DNA of 64,000 bases from Escherichia coli (GTDB lineage: Bacteria > Pseudomonadota > Gammaproteobacteria > Enterobacterales > Enterobacteriaceae): assembly GCF_030013595.1 (NCBI RefSeq), contig NZ_CP122768.1; one strand, 5' to 3'. The notes under the pieces were generated by a model, which saw nothing but the letters and a program-made list of their open reading frames with translations, did not search any database and had not been told where the DNA came from. Positions 327-51,207 of the stretch are shown here, in pieces; the stretch's first letter is position 1, and every line of letters starts with the position of its first letter. The position numbers and the translations under genes are program-made.

Positions 327-1544
327 TTATTTTTTAGCAACATAACGCAACAGGCTGCACTGAAAGATGGTCTTAAACCAGCGGGAATCGAAGTCCCTGA
401 CTTGCCTCAGGAAAAATACGGCACCGGGTTTACGGTCAAATACAGCTTCAAAAGAAGTATTTCCGCTTGCCACAGCTGCAGCGAAGACGGGTAACCAGGC
501 CACGGAATAGCGGTGATTTGCGTCAGGATTAATACCAATCACTGGATTTTTTTGTGACATCATCCATTTATACAGACGCTTGCAGCCATATTCAGGCCAG
601 CGAGCTTCACTGTGCTCACGTAAAAGCTCCTGATACCACCCGTGGACACAAGATTCAGGAATAGACGGAGGGAGATATCCGTTACTTAACCATTTCTCAA
701 TTTCATCGGCATATGTCGGGAACACGAGCCCCAGCCGTTGAAACATATTAGTAACCAGTAATTTCTGGGTTTCCTCCGGTGCACCTTTTTGGCTCAGGAA
801 CAATTTGAAACGCTCAGATGCAGCTTTGATCTCAAAGATGGGGAAAAACTCCCATAGAATAGGGAACTCATTCTCAATACGACTCAGGTACTCTGCTGAC
901 ATTTCAAATTTGAAGAGCGACATCGCCAATGCCTGCGGATGCTGCACTAGTGCACGCCATACTTCAAAGGTTGCCAGCGGTAAATAACCAAATTGATCGT
1001 ACAGGCTACGCATAAATTGCCAGCCGGAATGGGCAGGATCGTTAGCCATCTGTCCGAGAACCAGTGTGATGGTATTAACTTCTGCCTGTGGATTAAAAAG
1101 CTGGGTCGCTTTCTGCAATGAGCGGATGTTGCTTTCTTCTACCGGTAACGAAGATTCGCCACGAATGAAGCAGGGGCGAAAAGCCATCTCCTCACCCGGT
1201 TTAGGAACAACCAACCATGGCCCATTTTTGTTAACGATTGAGCTCAACTCATATTCACCGACAGGCACTCCCTCGCTCATTCTTGATGCTAAGGGGATGG
1301 ATTTCCTCTCGGGTTCACTTAACAGCATGATAACGGGGGAAGGAATCTGCCCAGCACGATGGTTCACTGACTGGCTGAGTAATAGTTCTTTTTCATAATC
1401 ATAGCGCAGGCTGTATTTATAGCGACGAATTTGCCAGGCCATGACCACACCTGCCCCCGTAATACGCATCTCAACAACCTGATCAATACCTGCCTCAAGT
1501 GAAATCAGGTTCTCAATATGTTCGCGCAGACTATAGAGATTCAA
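327..1544 (-). CDS. Uncharacterised 405-aa protein; middle gene of the 3-gene operon
   Basis: Long uninterrupted ORF in the track; 18-bp gap to the upstream gene, 12 bp to the downstream gene; no motif I recognise (no Walker A, no obvious nuclease motif). Confidence 0.7.
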   Translation of the reverse strand: MNLYSLREHIENLISLEAGIDQVVEMRITGAGVVMAWQIRRYKYSLRYDYEKELLLSQSVNHRAGQIPSPVIMLLSEPERKSIPLASRMSEGVPVGEYELSSIVNKNGPWLVVPKPGEEMAFRPCFIRGESSLPVEESNIRSLQKATQLFNPQAEVNTITLVLGQMANDPAHSGWQFMRSLYDQFGYLPLATFEVWRALVQHPQALAMSLFKFEMSAEYLSRIENEFPILWEFFPIFEIKAASERFKLFLSQKGAPEETQKLLVTNMFQRLGLVFPTYADEIEKWLSNGYLPPSIPESCVHGWYQELLREHSEARWPEYGCKRLYKWMMSQKNPVIGINPDANHRYSVAWLPVFAAAVASGNTSFEAVFDRKPGAVFFLRQVRDFDSRWFKTIFQCSLLRYVAKK

Positions 1545-1562
1545 TTCAACAGGACGATCGCT

Positions 1563-3617
1563 CTACGCCGTATAACACCATTCATGCCATGCCTGTAATC
1601 CACTAACGGAGCGCAAATACAACTGCAATGTATATTTTGTCGGCTCACCATTTCTGGAGAACAGAAACGCTCTGGAACCCAGCAGATCATGCAGCGTAAT
1701 GTTTTTATCCAGAGGACGTCCGTTTACATCAAGAGCGAGACAGCCTTTAGCGGGAAAAGGTAACTCAATGTCGATGGGGTCAGCCGCCAAATTAGGCAGA
1801 ACTTGTAATGTAATAAATGCCGGAGGTACCCCTTCCGCTTTAAGTTGTATCTCTGTTCGCCCCTCAGTACGCTTACGTGTAGCCTCCAATGTTTTATCTT
1901 TAAGTTTTGCTACACAAGGATGCTGTGTGGTGATTAAGATAGTGCCTTCATTTGCGTGCATTCCACCTTTTATCTCAATACTGAAATCAGCAGGCAAGAT
2001 ACCGATTTTGCGACGCAAGAGCGTTTCATTGTTACTATTACGGATAGAAAGATATTGAGCCCCCAGCATCTCTTGTATATGACATTGCTCAATTGAAATT
2101 CCGCTCAGGTAACGCGTTACATCAATGCTTTGAATATCCGGTAGTGTAGAAATGACTTTTGGTACACCAATAAATGTTTCATCTGGATGACAAACCCAGC
2201 TTGCACGCTTTCCATTTAGAGCAAACCTTCCGATGCTGATTTGTTCTCTTCCGGTGCGAATCCGATAAGTTTCATTTGCTGTAACTGTAACGTCCTGACA
2301 TCCCTTCACAGGTAGTGCTTTTAGTCCTAATACGTTTACTGCGCTCGATTGGCCATCAAAACCAGCAACATTGCTATTATCCCGAGGGAGTACAATCAGA
2401 ACATCGCTGCTTCGCACACTGCAAGAAGCCTGTCCCTGTAACAGCCATTGATCTGCATCAACGATGAAGGTTAACGGCACCTCACCAATGGCAATTTCAC
2501 TGTCATCAAGTTTAATGCTCCCAACAATCATCCCTCCAGCACGAGCCACTAATGACAAACCAGCCGATGGATTTTGCCTGACAAATCTCACTTCGCTTTT
2601 ACGTAATCGAACTGTTGCCTGTCTGTTTTCCAGGGAAGCATAGGCTGGCCCAAGGCCAGAGACTTCCTCACCATCTTCACAAATGGCAAGTTCAAAGCGC
2701 GTAGTTGACGGCTCGCTTGTTACAGGAAAGGAAACTTCGTCCGGAAGAGATACTATCACCCTAAGCTCATCTGGATGCTTTTCTGACCAATAGAATTGGC
2801 AACGCGTACTCTTATTTTTTTGTAGTCGAGGCTTAGCCTCTACAGAGGCTGCGCATAGCAGTCCATTCAAAAAATGCGTTCCTGTTTCATCATCTAACGG
2901 TATTGGAAACTCGCTTCGCCAGGTAGGGTGAACCTTCTCAAGCTGTTGTACTGGTTCTTTGTGATTTATTAGGTTGTGAGTAAGTACTAAGGAATTGAGG
3001 TTATCAGCCATATGACTGATAAGTTCTACAGAGGTATCTTCGCTAAAAACAGTTGGCAGCGCTGATTTTTCTATGACAGCTCTTGCCAGCGAAAGGGCAG
3101 AAAAACCTGACTGCTTTGCTTGCTCATATTGTCCAAGGATCCTGGAGAAAACAGCCAGAAAGCGACTGTCTGATTCTTTGAGTAGCCGGAAAGGTAAACC
3201 ACCTTCACTGAATAATGTTCCGAGAAAATTGCGTCGTTCAGATTCATAAAATCGAATTGGGCGCAGCCAGTAATCTTCCATCCCTTTCGGTACGATAGTA
3301 CCAAGCTCTGTGGCGGTGAATGAAATCCCTATTTTTTTATATATAGGGTCCCACGTCCATCCGCATTGCCGTTCATAATCCCTGCGGTACCACTCAGAGC
3401 AAAAAAGAACAAAACAGGCAGCAAAGTCCCTATTACATATATTAGATTGTGATTGACCGACCGCACGGAGTAGCTGCGTTAATTGGGTATATTCATCATT
3501 GGTTGCATGATATTCATAAAGAGGACGGCCATCCGGTTGTCTCAACCCTCTAAGATTCACAAAGTTACTTAGCCAGGAAGTACATTTTACCCATGAAATG
3601 TATTCTGATTGACCCAA
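1563..3617 (-). CDS. Uncharacterised 684-aa protein; first gene of the 3-gene operon, positionally equivalent to K-12 yjiT
   Basis: Long ORF next to yjiS with an AT-rich promoter region upstream (3618..4115); GC content visibly lower than neighbouring core genes; no recognisable catalytic motif. Confidence 0.7.
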   Translation of the reverse strand: MGQSEYISWVKCTSWLSNFVNLRGLRQPDGRPLYEYHATNDEYTQLTQLLRAVGQSQSNICNRDFAACFVLFCSEWYRRDYERQCGWTWDPIYKKIGISFTATELGTIVPKGMEDYWLRPIRFYESERRNFLGTLFSEGGLPFRLLKESDSRFLAVFSRILGQYEQAKQSGFSALSLARAVIEKSALPTVFSEDTSVELISHMADNLNSLVLTHNLINHKEPVQQLEKVHPTWRSEFPIPLDDETGTHFLNGLLCAASVEAKPRLQKNKSTRCQFYWSEKHPDELRVIVSLPDEVSFPVTSEPSTTRFELAICEDGEEVSGLGPAYASLENRQATVRLRKSEVRFVRQNPSAGLSLVARAGGMIVGSIKLDDSEIAIGEVPLTFIVDADQWLLQGQASCSVRSSDVLIVLPRDNSNVAGFDGQSSAVNVLGLKALPVKGCQDVTVTANETYRIRTGREQISIGRFALNGKRASWVCHPDETFIGVPKVISTLPDIQSIDVTRYLSGISIEQCHIQEMLGAQYLSIRNSNNETLLRRKIGILPADFSIEIKGGMHANEGTILITTQHPCVAKLKDKTLEATRKRTEGRTEIQLKAEGVPPAFITLQVLPNLAADPIDIELPFPAKGCLALDVNGRPLDKNITLHDLLGSRAFLFSRNGEPTKYTLQLYLRSVSGLQAWHEWCYTA

Positions 3618-47454: not shown

Positions 47455-47608
47455 GCGTTCATTAATTTGATTTATTTGCATCCATTAGCGCTTTTAACTG
47501 CTCCGGCGAAAACGGTGGTTTGCGTCGGTGCAACATCGCATGGCAATTGGGGTACACAGGCAGCAAAAAAACAAATGAGATCAAGGTAATATATCTTCAC
47601 TTGCAGGC

Positions 47609-48538
47609 TTGAACAGCAGAAAATTTGCGAGCATGATCGCAATTATTTCACTGCCAGGGATATCAATGGCTTCCAGTAAATCGCTACAGCAGGCAATTGC
47701 CAATATAAAAATCTGGCACAAGGGTGAACAGCGCGCGCCGCATAAGCCATTGTTATTGCTATACGTATTAGCGGGATACCTGAATGGACATCCGCGCCTT
47801 TTCGATTATGGATCGGAAATCTACGAACCTCTGCACAGTTTACTGGAACGTTTTGGGCCACAGCGTTCACAGTACCGACCTGATATGCCGTTCTGGCGAT
47901 TACAAGGCGACGGATTCTGGCAATTACACAATGCCGAGCTTTGCTCAACAGCAGGGAGCAGCCGACAACCACCAGTGAAGGAACTGATTGAATACCACGT
48001 TGCAGGCGGTTTCGATGAACAGCACTACGCCCTGGTAACTGGCAATAAAAAACTCATCAATACTCTGGCGCAACAGATACTCGAAGCGCACTTCACCGAG
48101 AGTATTCAGGAAGAAATTGCTGACGAGCTGGGTTTTGATCTCCAGCAAATCCGTAAACAGCGCGACCCGTTATTTCGCAAAAATGTATTACGCGCTTATA
48201 AATACCAGTGCGCGATATGTGGCTTTAATATGCGCCACGACGACGCCACCGTCGCGCTTGAAGCGGCGCATATAAAATGGAAACAGCACGGCGGTCCTTG
48301 TGAAATTCCTAATGGCCTAGCGCTTTGCGCAATTCACCATAAAGCCTTTGATAAAGGATCGATTGGCCTGGACGAAAATATGCGGGTACTGGTATCAGAT
48401 GCGGTAAACGGCGGAGGGATCGTTGAGAGATTATTCTGGGATTTTGACGGGAAAACTATTGCGTTGCCGCAGGTGCGTAAAAATTACCCTTATGAGGTGT
48501 TTGTTGAGTGGCATCGGAAAGAGGTTTTTAGGGGGTGA
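47609..48538 (+). CDS. HNH-endonuclease domain protein with uncharacterised N-terminal domain (possible type IV restriction-like enzyme)
   Basis: C-terminal HNH signature CAICGF...EAAHIKWKQHGGPCEIPNGLALCAIHHKAFD; N-terminal ~200 residues unassigned. Confidence 0.65.
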   Translation: MNSRKFASMIAIISLPGISMASSKSLQQAIANIKIWHKGEQRAPHKPLLLLYVLAGYLNGHPRLFDYGSEIYEPLHSLLERFGPQRSQYRPDMPFWRLQGDGFWQLHNAELCSTAGSSRQPPVKELIEYHVAGGFDEQHYALVTGNKKLINTLAQQILEAHFTESIQEEIADELGFDLQQIRKQRDPLFRKNVLRAYKYQCAICGFNMRHDDATVALEAAHIKWKQHGGPCEIPNGLALCAIHHKAFDKGSIGLDENMRVLVSDAVNGGGIVERLFWDFDGKTIALPQVRKNYPYEVFVEWHRKEVFRG

Positions 48539-49094
48539 GGTTGATAACTATCGCAGTATGTTCAATATTGCTGACATAATCAGTGCAGGATCTTGCCGCT
48601 AGTTTACAACTCGCCTTCGATAGCGGCGCAAAACGAGTTCTGTTGCCGATATCCTGGGCTATGGATATTTCAACAGTTCCGGCAGAGTTGTTTACCAAGT
48701 TTCAGGTAAGTTTTTACTCATAACCGGTTGATGCGGTTTATAAGGCGCTGGATGTGAATTAACACATTCCTCAGTTTATTTACAAAAGGATTATTCCCAT
48801 TTGATATAATATAAGTGCCAATTTACTTTTTCAATGGAATATATCTCGGCTAAATAACAATAAAACTTATCGCTAATGGATTAAATAAACAATTTTCTAA
48901 TTTATTTCACCACCTTTGATATAGAAATTGATGGTGTTGTCGCTGCCATTGCTTATGGTGATGATAAAATCCACGTTTCTGGATCGGTGCGTAGAAAATC
49001 ATCACTACCTTGATATTTTGATGCGATATGATCATACCGTTCCGTAGTACCAATTTCAACTTCAGGCTAAACCCCAACATTAAAAAATTTAGAG

Positions 49095-49136
49095 TTATTC
49101 ACTGATTATATTATCATTAATATAATCAGTGAATAA
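49095..49136. repeat. Perfect 19-bp inverted repeat with 4-bp spacer
   Basis: TTATTCACTGATTATATTA-TCAT-TAATATAATCAGTGAATAA, checked base by base; lies 116 bp downstream of the 651-aa gene. Confidence 0.8.
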
Positions 49137-49251
49137 CATGGACTATATAATAAATTGCTCTAATCATTTCCCTTACGAATATATGGGCCAAAAGCCCAAG
49201 AATCATAATAAGGGTGATGGACTAATTTTTCATTAAATCGAACACTATAAG

Positions 49252-51207
49252 TTAATTTTTTATATTTTTACGTACAGCATTAATACTGGGCAAAGAGGAA
49301 AGATAATCTATAAACTTATCGATAGTGATTTCCCCTTCGCAACACTCAAACCCATCAATGATATTTTTCGCCATTTTTCCATTTTCATTTGTTTGATATA
49401 TCACTCCAGGTATTCGTTGAAAAAAACTAGATAATGCATATTTGTCCGCTACATATGTATCATCCACATGATATTTCCCACCGAGCATAGTTGTAGTAAC
49501 AATAAGCTTATACACACCTTTGGGTTGCCATGTTGATGGTAGTTCGAATTCTTTAATGATCACATCAAGATGATTAAGATAATGTTCAGAAATTCGATTT
49601 ATTTGTTGAAAATAAGAACGCATAAATTTATTATTATGATCATGTATTAATGAGCTATCTCCAACGATGTTACACACTTGCTGATAGTACTTACCATAAT
49701 ATATTGGTTGACCATTTGATTTTAGTTCTGTAAAAATCAAACAATCATCCAAGAGAATCACGCAATCGCACTGATAATTAGCATGAGCATCAATTGGAGA
49801 AGCTTTAATCCCCGCATCACGAACTTGTTTTATAAATTGTTGTTCATGAAATCGCCCTTTACTTGCTTGAGAAATTTTTTTGGAACCAAATAATGACATT
49901 AGAGAGCGAGTCACTGAGCTATTTGCTATTAATGCAGGCATTAAGAATAAACCGTCCATACAGGGAATAAATGGGCAATCATTAAGATCATGTGATTTTG
50001 AATTGAAGGTAAAATAATCTATCAGTTTTTTTGCTGCATCTGCTGCAATCCCCTTACGTTGAAAGAATGATAACCAACTCTCACGGCTTTTTATGATCAG
50101 CCAGCGCTCCAACTGTAGGGGTATAGGCTTTGTCGATGAAAATCTTTTGCTCATTTCTTCTTTAGATAACTCGACTAAACATTGATAAGCGTGCACCCAA
50201 TTAAATAATGATATATTCCCATATTCTTCATGAAGGTCATCAGGAGACATATTTTCTAACTCGCTTAGATGAAATGAGCTAAAAACGCCATCAGAATTTA
50301 AGTAAGATGGCATATGATCCTTTACCCAACTATTTAGATGAAAATGTTTGTTACTAAATTCATGAACTTCGCTATATAGATGTGACGCTCTCATCATTAG
50401 TCTATTTCTTGCAATCTCATAATCTCGGTATAAACAAAAACTATCAACCTCAAGAGAGTAAATGTTATTATCCAATTTTGTAAATACTGCACTACTTAGT
50501 CTGAAAAAATCTCTTACTCTGCTTAATGAGTCAAAAACATTCCACTCATTAAGGTACCCTCCCATTGAAAGCAAGGTTTGTTTATTCACACAAGAAGTTA
50601 GTTTCAATGGCCCATGAGTCCGTAAATAAGAAAATATTCTTCCGGTGTAATTGGCTACCTCATCAAATGCCCTATCGATAACTCGAAAATATTCGATATC
50701 AGGTTCAGCATGAATATTAATATTTTCAGAAACGATAAATAATGGAAAAATCCTCTTCATTTTTTTAGGATCATTGACCACAACCAAGGATGATAATGAT
50801 GATAAAAACATCTCACAAAACATGATGAGATTAAGTATTAATGCATGTGATTTTTTTGTATTTTTACGCCAAATACCAGCACATTTTGTAGCCGCAAAGA
50901 AAGAATTATTTATATCATGCATAATTTTACATTGACTCTCGAACTCAGAGATTAGTTCAATGTTATCAGGAAATGAGTTTCCTAGCTCATTAATACATTT
51001 TTTGAATGTATTGTTATACTCAACTTCAGTCTGAACTGAAAATCTATTATAATAGATGGAAGATATTCTTAGCACATCCAAGGCGATATCTATACTAATA
51101 TCATCTCTTTTTATGTACTCACAAAAAAAAGAACAAAACTGTTTCGGGTCGTTAGCAAGATTACTAATTCTAGTGGTATCATAAACTTTTTCCATTTTTC
51201 CATACAT
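49252..51207 (-). CDS. Uncharacterised low-GC 651-aa protein at the leuX islet
   Basis: Long ORF in strongly AT-rich DNA immediately 3' of tRNA-Leu (leuX); possible PD-(D/E)xK-like motif (CDCVILLDDCLIFTELK) near residue 480; otherwise no recognisable domain. Confidence 0.7.
   Translation of the reverse strand: MYGKMEKVYDTTRISNLANDPKQFCSFFCEYIKRDDISIDIALDVLRISSIYYNRFSVQTEVEYNNTFKKCINELGNSFPDNIELISEFESQCKIMHDINNSFFAATKCAGIWRKNTKKSHALILNLIMFCEMFLSSLSSLVVVNDPKKMKRIFPLFIVSENINIHAEPDIEYFRVIDRAFDEVANYTGRIFSYLRTHGPLKLTSCVNKQTLLSMGGYLNEWNVFDSLSRVRDFFRLSSAVFTKLDNNIYSLEVDSFCLYRDYEIARNRLMMRASHLYSEVHEFSNKHFHLNSWVKDHMPSYLNSDGVFSSFHLSELENMSPDDLHEEYGNISLFNWVHAYQCLVELSKEEMSKRFSSTKPIPLQLERWLIIKSRESWLSFFQRKGIAADAAKKLIDYFTFNSKSHDLNDCPFIPCMDGLFLMPALIANSSVTRSLMSLFGSKKISQASKGRFHEQQFIKQVRDAGIKASPIDAHANYQCDCVILLDDCLIFTELKSNGQPIYYGKYYQQVCNIVGDSSLIHDHNNKFMRSYFQQINRISEHYLNHLDVIIKEFELPSTWQPKGVYKLIVTTTMLGGKYHVDDTYVADKYALSSFFQRIPGVIYQTNENGKMAKNIIDGFECCEGEITIDKFIDYLSSLPSINAVRKNIKN

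Follow-up and report, generated by a model that had tools for sequence, protein, structure and literature searches.

The gene at positions 47666–48538 (+ strand) of the window, a 64,000-nucleotide stretch of an Escherichia coli chromosome, very probably encodes an SBD-HNH restriction endonuclease, a stand-alone, modification-dependent enzyme similar to EcoWI that, by analogy with characterised relatives, most likely cuts incoming DNA that carries sulfur on its backbone. The predicted protein matched the NCBIfam family NF045808, “phosphorothioated DNA-binding restriction endonuclease”, across profile positions 2–284 of 284 (439.2 bits, E = 5.4e-132; curated cutoff, 180 bits), and near-identical E. 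coli orthologues carry the same name in RefSeq. A Pfam-A scan returned HNH_2 alone, in the C-terminal part (E = 1.5e-9), without an SBD family; precomputed Pfam assignments give every close homologue PF13391 together with PF26340, presumably the ScoMcrA DNA-SBD family. The Pfam and NCBIfam matches lie far above chance and bear out the C-terminal HNH nuclease proposed in a preliminary description of this DNA. That description had further suggested a modified-DNA reader fused to the nuclease, and the NF045808 match, together with the sequence matches and predicted fold of a sulfur-binding domain (SBD), supports its reading as a putative modification-dependent restriction enzyme and singles out phosphorothioated (PT) DNA among the targets it had listed. 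Authors differ on whether enzymes of the EcoWI kind belong to Type IV or to Type IIM. Family membership, domain folds, the intact pocket and catalytic residues, the chromosomal context and the distribution of the gene were established directly. The SBD-HNH family, including its E. coli members, has already been characterised (PMC6224610, PMC7461809) and public annotation already names the gene correctly; a published experiment on the exact window allele was not found. The window gene is an ordinary member of a curated, experimentally characterised family and leaves current understanding unchanged.

An uninterrupted frame spans 47609–48538 (+ strand; 309 codons counted from a TTG), the opposite strand being riddled with stops, and all of the motifs previously quoted from it (HKPLLLLYVLAGYLNGHPRLFDYG, PFWRLQGDGFWQL, CAICGF, HIKWKQHGG, and NGLALCAIHH) were found. 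While the open frame first described is real, its start has been moved: the endonuclease likely begins at the ATG at 47666 rather than the TTG at 47609, giving a protein of 290 aa plus stop (MASSKSLQQ..., 33.2 kDa). The ATG is preferred because RefSeq orthologues are annotated from the same codon, because position 2 of the NF045808 profile aligns first at residue 25 of the 309-aa ORF, and because full-length homologues measure 289–291 aa; the TTG was dropped as the true start on these grounds. An AGGGA is located 8 nt upstream of the ATG. The 5′ extension of the maximal ORF (47609–47665, + strand), which is without family-profile coverage and is non-coding in the orthologue annotation, is probably an untranslated leader. 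A small palindrome, TTGCGA-N6-TCGCAA, occurs at 47625–47642, 24 nt upstream of the ATG and inside the 109-bp upstream region that has been retained, and could be an operator or a leader hairpin.

The N-terminal module had been put at about 200 residues and described as a domain that could not be named. The module is present, but it consists of an SBD of about 160 aa (residues ~1–160; 47666–48145, + strand), a domain also found in ScoMcrA, SprMcrA, and Hga, and of a helical linker that runs to about residue 177. The SBD is identified as such because SBD structures were matched both by sequence and by fold, alongside the conserved pocket and the PF26340 assignment of close homologues. In a phmmer search of PDB sequences, residues 23–161 (309-aa numbering) matched the ScoMcrA SBD (5zmo/5zmm/5zmn; E about 1e-6, with E = 8e-7 for 5zmo), and the SprMcrA SBD (7cc9/7ccd/7ccj) was matched at E about 5e-3. 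Structure prediction and conservation were based on an alignment of 128 diverse full-length homologues (35–77% identical), and the resulting AlphaFold (AF2) model had a mean pLDDT of 95.7 and a pTM of 0.89. When the model was compared to the PDB using Foldseek, as had been suggested for reader domains, SBD structures ranked first and the HNH domains of TagI, VcaM4I, and EcoKMcrA came next. The match to 5zmo had a probability of 1.00 (target-normalised TM, 0.78; rmsd, 3.0 Å; 157 columns), and the target-normalised TM values were 0.70–0.76 for the SprMcrA SBD (7cc9, 7ccd, 7ccj) and 0.68–0.72 for the Hga SBD (8h0l). SRA and YTH domains were absent from the Pfam scan and the Foldseek matches of the protein.

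ScoMcrA reads the Rp sulfur with H116, R117, Y164, P165, and A168 (PMC6224610), which by alignment correspond to H26, K27, M74, P75, and R78 of the window protein (290-aa numbering). The sulfur pocket is intact in the window protein (H26, K27, and P75, with M74 in place of Y164). All 128 homologues share K27, 119 of them have H26 and 126 have P75, and conservation exceeds 92% at each of F76, L79, D82, and W85. For ScoMcrA, R117 is a Lys in most homologues and R117K was reported to be neutral, and the position of Y164 is variable, with Y164M reported to strengthen PT-DNA binding (PMC6224610). The residue introduced by Y164M is the one that the window protein has at this position (M74). A presumed base-reading loop lies at residues ~93–105, where the pLDDT of the model falls to 85.

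The helical linker between the domains (residues ~161–178, from the AF2 secondary structure; 48146–48199, + strand) has a pLDDT that dips to 78 at residues 161–170 and is the least conserved stretch between the window protein and the leuX-side paralogue of E. coli W (61% identity compared to 86% in the HNH domain). It is followed by the HNH (beta-beta-alpha-Me) nuclease domain and C-terminal tail (residues ~179–290; 48200–48535, + strand), identified by Pfam HNH_2 and by the TagI, VcaM4I, and EcoKMcrA HNH matches; the TagI HNH domain was also matched by the C-terminal part in the PDB sequence search. Seven HNH and zinc residues are all intact in the window protein, including C182 and N216, which are invariant amongst the 128 homologues, and C185, H202, C221, H224, and H225, which are at least 96% conserved. 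By analogy, C182, C185, C221, and H224 would fit a Cys/His zinc site (CxxC...CxxH), and H202, N216, and H225 would fit the His-Asn-His catalytic set of beta-beta-alpha-Me nucleases.

In the mechanism proposed for the enzyme, the SBD would dock on double-stranded DNA such that the Rp sulfur of a phosphorothioate enters a small hydrophobic pocket (H26, M74, P75, and R78), with K27 forming a salt bridge, and the flexible loop (residues ~93–105) would read the adjacent bases, most likely in a GpsAAC/GpsTTC context. This is the motif written by enterobacterial DndABCDE systems. The helical linker would position the zinc-stabilised HNH domain a few base pairs to one side of the PT site, where H202 would act as the general base and N216 and H225 would serve for the metal, and the HNH domain would cut both strands with Mg2+, probably as a dimer. 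Because the host is proposed to lack PT in its own DNA, neither a cognate modification gene nor an immunity gene would be needed, and destruction would be limited to incoming plasmids or phages from dnd+ hosts. On PT dependence, the sequence context, the distance of the cut, dimerisation, the metal needed, and restriction in vivo, this proposal follows the characterised relatives.

Along the window, the gene order is fimE, fimB, nanC, nanM, nanS, the endonuclease, an ORF of 651 aa (− strand), the tRNA-Leu(CAA) gene leuX, ahr, yjgR, and lptG. The endonuclease gene has a GC content of 48.5%, near that of the host, and the 3 kb towards leuX have 31–37% GC, so that the gene lies on the border of the variable island at leuX. 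Copies covering at least 80% of the coding sequence were found in 1914 of 5426 complete E. coli genomes (about a third), at the sensitivity of blastn. A stretch of 583 bp present in most strains has been deleted from the window between two 12-bp direct repeats (ACAGGCAGCAAA), with the junction near 47557–47568. All that the deletion spared of another HNH endonuclease gene, transcribed divergently, is its final 34 codons (47462–47566, − strand), identified by a translation that matches the C-terminus of WP_001037972.1, a 216-aa HNH endonuclease that is intact in many strains. The same deletion occurs in E. coli W and HCP5S3_I2, where the remnant is annotated as a pseudogene. The N-terminus of intact WP_001037972.1 weakly matches the head region (29–92) of the PADLOC model PDLC03662, of which positions 94–231 match the window SBD.

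E. coli W possesses two SBD-HNH paralogues, 75% identical, at opposite ends of a ~45-kb leuX island (L003, 16158–17033; L004, 7973–8845). Two type I RM systems, McrBC-like genes, and toxin-antitoxin modules are also carried on this island. The nanS-adjacent paralogue, WP_000168572.1, is the syntenic orthologue of the window gene (98.3% identical; five substitutions, I108N, G156R, K179N, A194T, and H208Q) and shares the 583-bp upstream deletion; a publication naming it was not found. Downstream of it in W lie McrBC-family and type I RM genes, which fits a defence-island setting, whereas the window has the 651-aa ORF at this position. The second paralogue, WP_000199891.1, the ScoMcrA homologue of W and LY180, has the same SBD-linker-HNH arrangement (291 aa compared to 290 aa; 76–77% identity), identical pocket motifs (HKPLLLLYVL and RPDMPFWRL), and an identical HNH core. 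It occurs in the same species and the same leuX–nanS variable region, but beside the leuX integrase rather than nanS, and is much rarer (187 of 5426 genomes).

Experimental data exist for this second paralogue, the ‘Eco’ SBD homologue of Liu et al. (2018), who synthesised the gene with its own promoter from LY180 (PMC6224610), a derivative of W in which the presence of WP_000199891 was confirmed. The SBD binds Rp but not Sp PT-DNA, binding is lost in a pocket Pro-to-Asn mutant, and the gene restricts transfer of a Salmonella dnd cluster (PMC6224610). EcoWI, described by Lutz et al. (2020), is an Mg2+-dependent dimer that cuts GpsAAC/GpsTTC at N7/N6 and completely restricts dnd+ plasmids in vivo (PMC7461809). 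The main texts and supplement of PMC7461809 and PMC9521924 do not give an accession or sequence for EcoWI. EcoWI is probably the leuX-side paralogue WP_000199891, as favoured, suggestively, by the mass match alone (33,410 Da for the leuX-side and 33,311 Da for the nanS-side protein; published predicted mass, 33.4 kDa, PMC7461809), and ‘Eco’ and ‘EcoWI’ are listed as separate entries elsewhere (PMC10602919). On either assignment, a relative characterised by experiment in the same species is at least 76% identical to the window protein.

The chief, if modest, residual uncertainty concerns sequence specificity, which in the common allele beside nanS may not be that of the characterised paralogue. 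The differences between the window protein and WP_000199891 are concentrated in the linker and the SBD, including the presumed base-reading loop. The SBD diverges more (74% identity) than the HNH domain (86%), and the loop, aligned as AGSSRQPPVK in the window protein and S-GSRQPPRR in WP_000199891, contains an indel as well as V104R and K105R, so the sequence context could differ. A PT-dependent nuclease with a context unlike that of EcoWI/WP_000199891 (e.g., GpsATC, GpsGCC, CpsCA, or promiscuous) would explain why E. coli W keeps two coexisting paralogues that are only 75% identical, and base-contact residues do vary with specificity (PMC6224610, PMC10602919). This reading is nonetheless unlikely, as all five of the active SBD-HNH enzymes of Lutz et al. 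preferred GpsAAC/GpsTTC despite identities of ~28% (PMC7461809), GpsAAC/GpsTTC is the enterobacterial dnd motif, and an identity of 76% is high. Slightly more doubtful is an extended form of the same idea, in which the nanS-adjacent allele is functionally distinct from EcoWI/WP_000199891, with another or a broader PT context, as part of a small E. coli repertoire of PT readers tuned to different dnd/ssp motifs, and in most strains would act together with the small HNH endonuclease next door, the one lost from the window by deletion.

There is a small chance that the gene, though intact in appearance, is silent or decaying, the upstream deletion having removed its promoter as part of an erosion of the locus like that in K-12. 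The deletion ends 109 bp upstream of the ATG, and a consensus scan of these 109 bp identified no convincing sigma-70 promoter. In K-12 derivatives, the corresponding site beside nanS holds only a frameshifted, truncated remnant of the gene, adjoining the yjhR pseudogene (L005, 4011–4216, in E. coli XL10-gold). Consensus scans, however, overlook many real promoters, the ORF of the window is full-length with every conserved residue intact, and the ORF has also stayed intact in the distant strains with the same deletion, E. coli W and HCP5S3_I2.

The similarity of the HNH domain to those of TagI, VcaM4I, and EcoKMcrA, and the label of the nearest PADLOC models (‘Type IV methyl-directed restriction enzyme’), could instead indicate a Type IV enzyme dependent on base modification (5mC, 5hmC, or 6mA), such as EcoKMcrA, TagI, or ScoMcrA via its SRA domain, rather than on PT. 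This is very improbable, as only the nuclease half shows the likeness. Sequence matches to 6ghs and 6ghc stayed within query residues 179–268 (309-aa numbering), in the HNH region, whole-chain TM values were no higher than 0.21–0.31 in Foldseek, and an N-terminal modified-base reader of the EcoKMcrA/TagI type was not detected. The PADLOC model PDLC03662 was matched at 94–231, a segment that lines up with the SBD of ScoMcrA (chain residues 95–233). An SRA, YTH, or McrA-type reader was ruled out, since the N-terminal domain matches SBDs only, and an N-terminal fold of any of these three kinds was absent from the PDB sequence search, the Pfam scan, and the Foldseek matches. Next to no probability attaches to a mobile homing endonuclease of the HNH kind or a nuclease of phage descent, and such an origin was ruled out. 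Phage homing endonucleases often contain HNH domains, and residues 144–246 are matched by PHROG HNH families, but the phage-family matches cover the HNH part only, most of the protein was found in a single short, unannotated phage record among 50,697, and the gene occupies a fixed chromosomal site beside nanS in many strains with no intron or intein context.

Those large ORFs of the 64-kb window that were scanned or recognised by their order are not dnd genes but the nan and leuX neighbours, an adhesin, a pentapeptide protein, and YjiT. The 651-aa ORF between the endonuclease gene and leuX (49252–51207, − strand; 33% GC) had no match in Pfam, NCBIfam, PHROGs, or PDB sequences, and its sole match was a weak one to PADLOC PDC-M29B (residues 465–514). 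A D...ExK-like motif, DDCLIFTELK, was spotted by eye in its C-terminal part, around the region matching PDC-M29B. The ORF is frameshifted in strain 2014C-3338 and replaced by the McrBC-like genes in E. coli W; other strains carry different genes there, and no functional link to the endonuclease was established. Just downstream of this ORF, at 49094–49137, is a perfect AT-rich palindrome with 20-bp arms (GTTATTCACTGATTATATTA-ATGA-TAATATAATCAGTGAATAAC) that could terminate transcription in both directions or be bound by a protein. Elsewhere, an inverse autotransporter (intimin/invasin-like) adhesin of 1746 aa (17194–22434, + strand), of which the N-terminal 840 aa match the IatC model below its cutoff, appears to sit between kptA- and yjiJ-like ORFs, judged by ORF order and sizes alone. 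A 656-aa protein (12669–14639, + strand) has a C-terminal pentapeptide-repeat region (residues ~372–625) with weak matches to the repeats of HetL, Qnr, and PipB2, and has no assignment for its N-terminal half. A gene of the YjiT/STY4851 family (327–3617, − strand) is split into ORFs of 684 aa and 405 aa, covering profile positions 1–678 and 687–1090, and is probably a pseudogene or the product of a sequencing frameshift.

By analogy with its relatives, the window gene would mark its strain as able to restrict DNA from PT-modifying (dnd+) bacteria, such as some Salmonella and E. coli, a capacity relevant to horizontal gene transfer and to the cloning of dnd clusters. Enzymes of the family already serve as reagents, as in EcoWI-seq for the mapping of PT sites.

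Outside of E. coli, the relatives of the window protein differ in how the SBD is combined with other domains. ScoMcrA of Streptomyces coelicolor (5ZMM/5ZMN/5ZMO) has a homologous SBD (about 20% identity to that of the window protein) with the same sulfur pocket and, as in the window protein, a C-terminal HNH domain, but at a length of at least 560 aa, compared to 290 aa, it includes an extra N-terminal head and an SRA domain. Neither of these was encountered in the 290-aa window protein, for which the 5zmm alignment was limited to chain residues 95–233 and no SRA fold was matched. The PT context recognised by ScoMcrA is GpsGCC and its preferred metal is Mn2+; it cleaves 5mC/5hmC DNA as well, and its cut distance is variable (PMC6224610, PMC7461809). 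Hga of Hahella ganghwensis (8H0L) shares the SBD fold and PT-dependent restriction with the class of the window enzyme, though its effector is of the PD-(D/E)XK type and not HNH, its L4 loop is short, and it is promiscuous as to sequence (PMC10602919). SprMcrA, Ksp11411I, Bsp305I, Mae9806I, and Sau43800I are, like the window protein, two-domain SBD-HNH proteins without an SRA domain. Enzymes of this SprMcrA type have ~28% identity to EcoWI, with differing metal preferences and cut distances, and cleave in a PT-dependent manner near GpsAAC/GpsTTC (PMC7461809).
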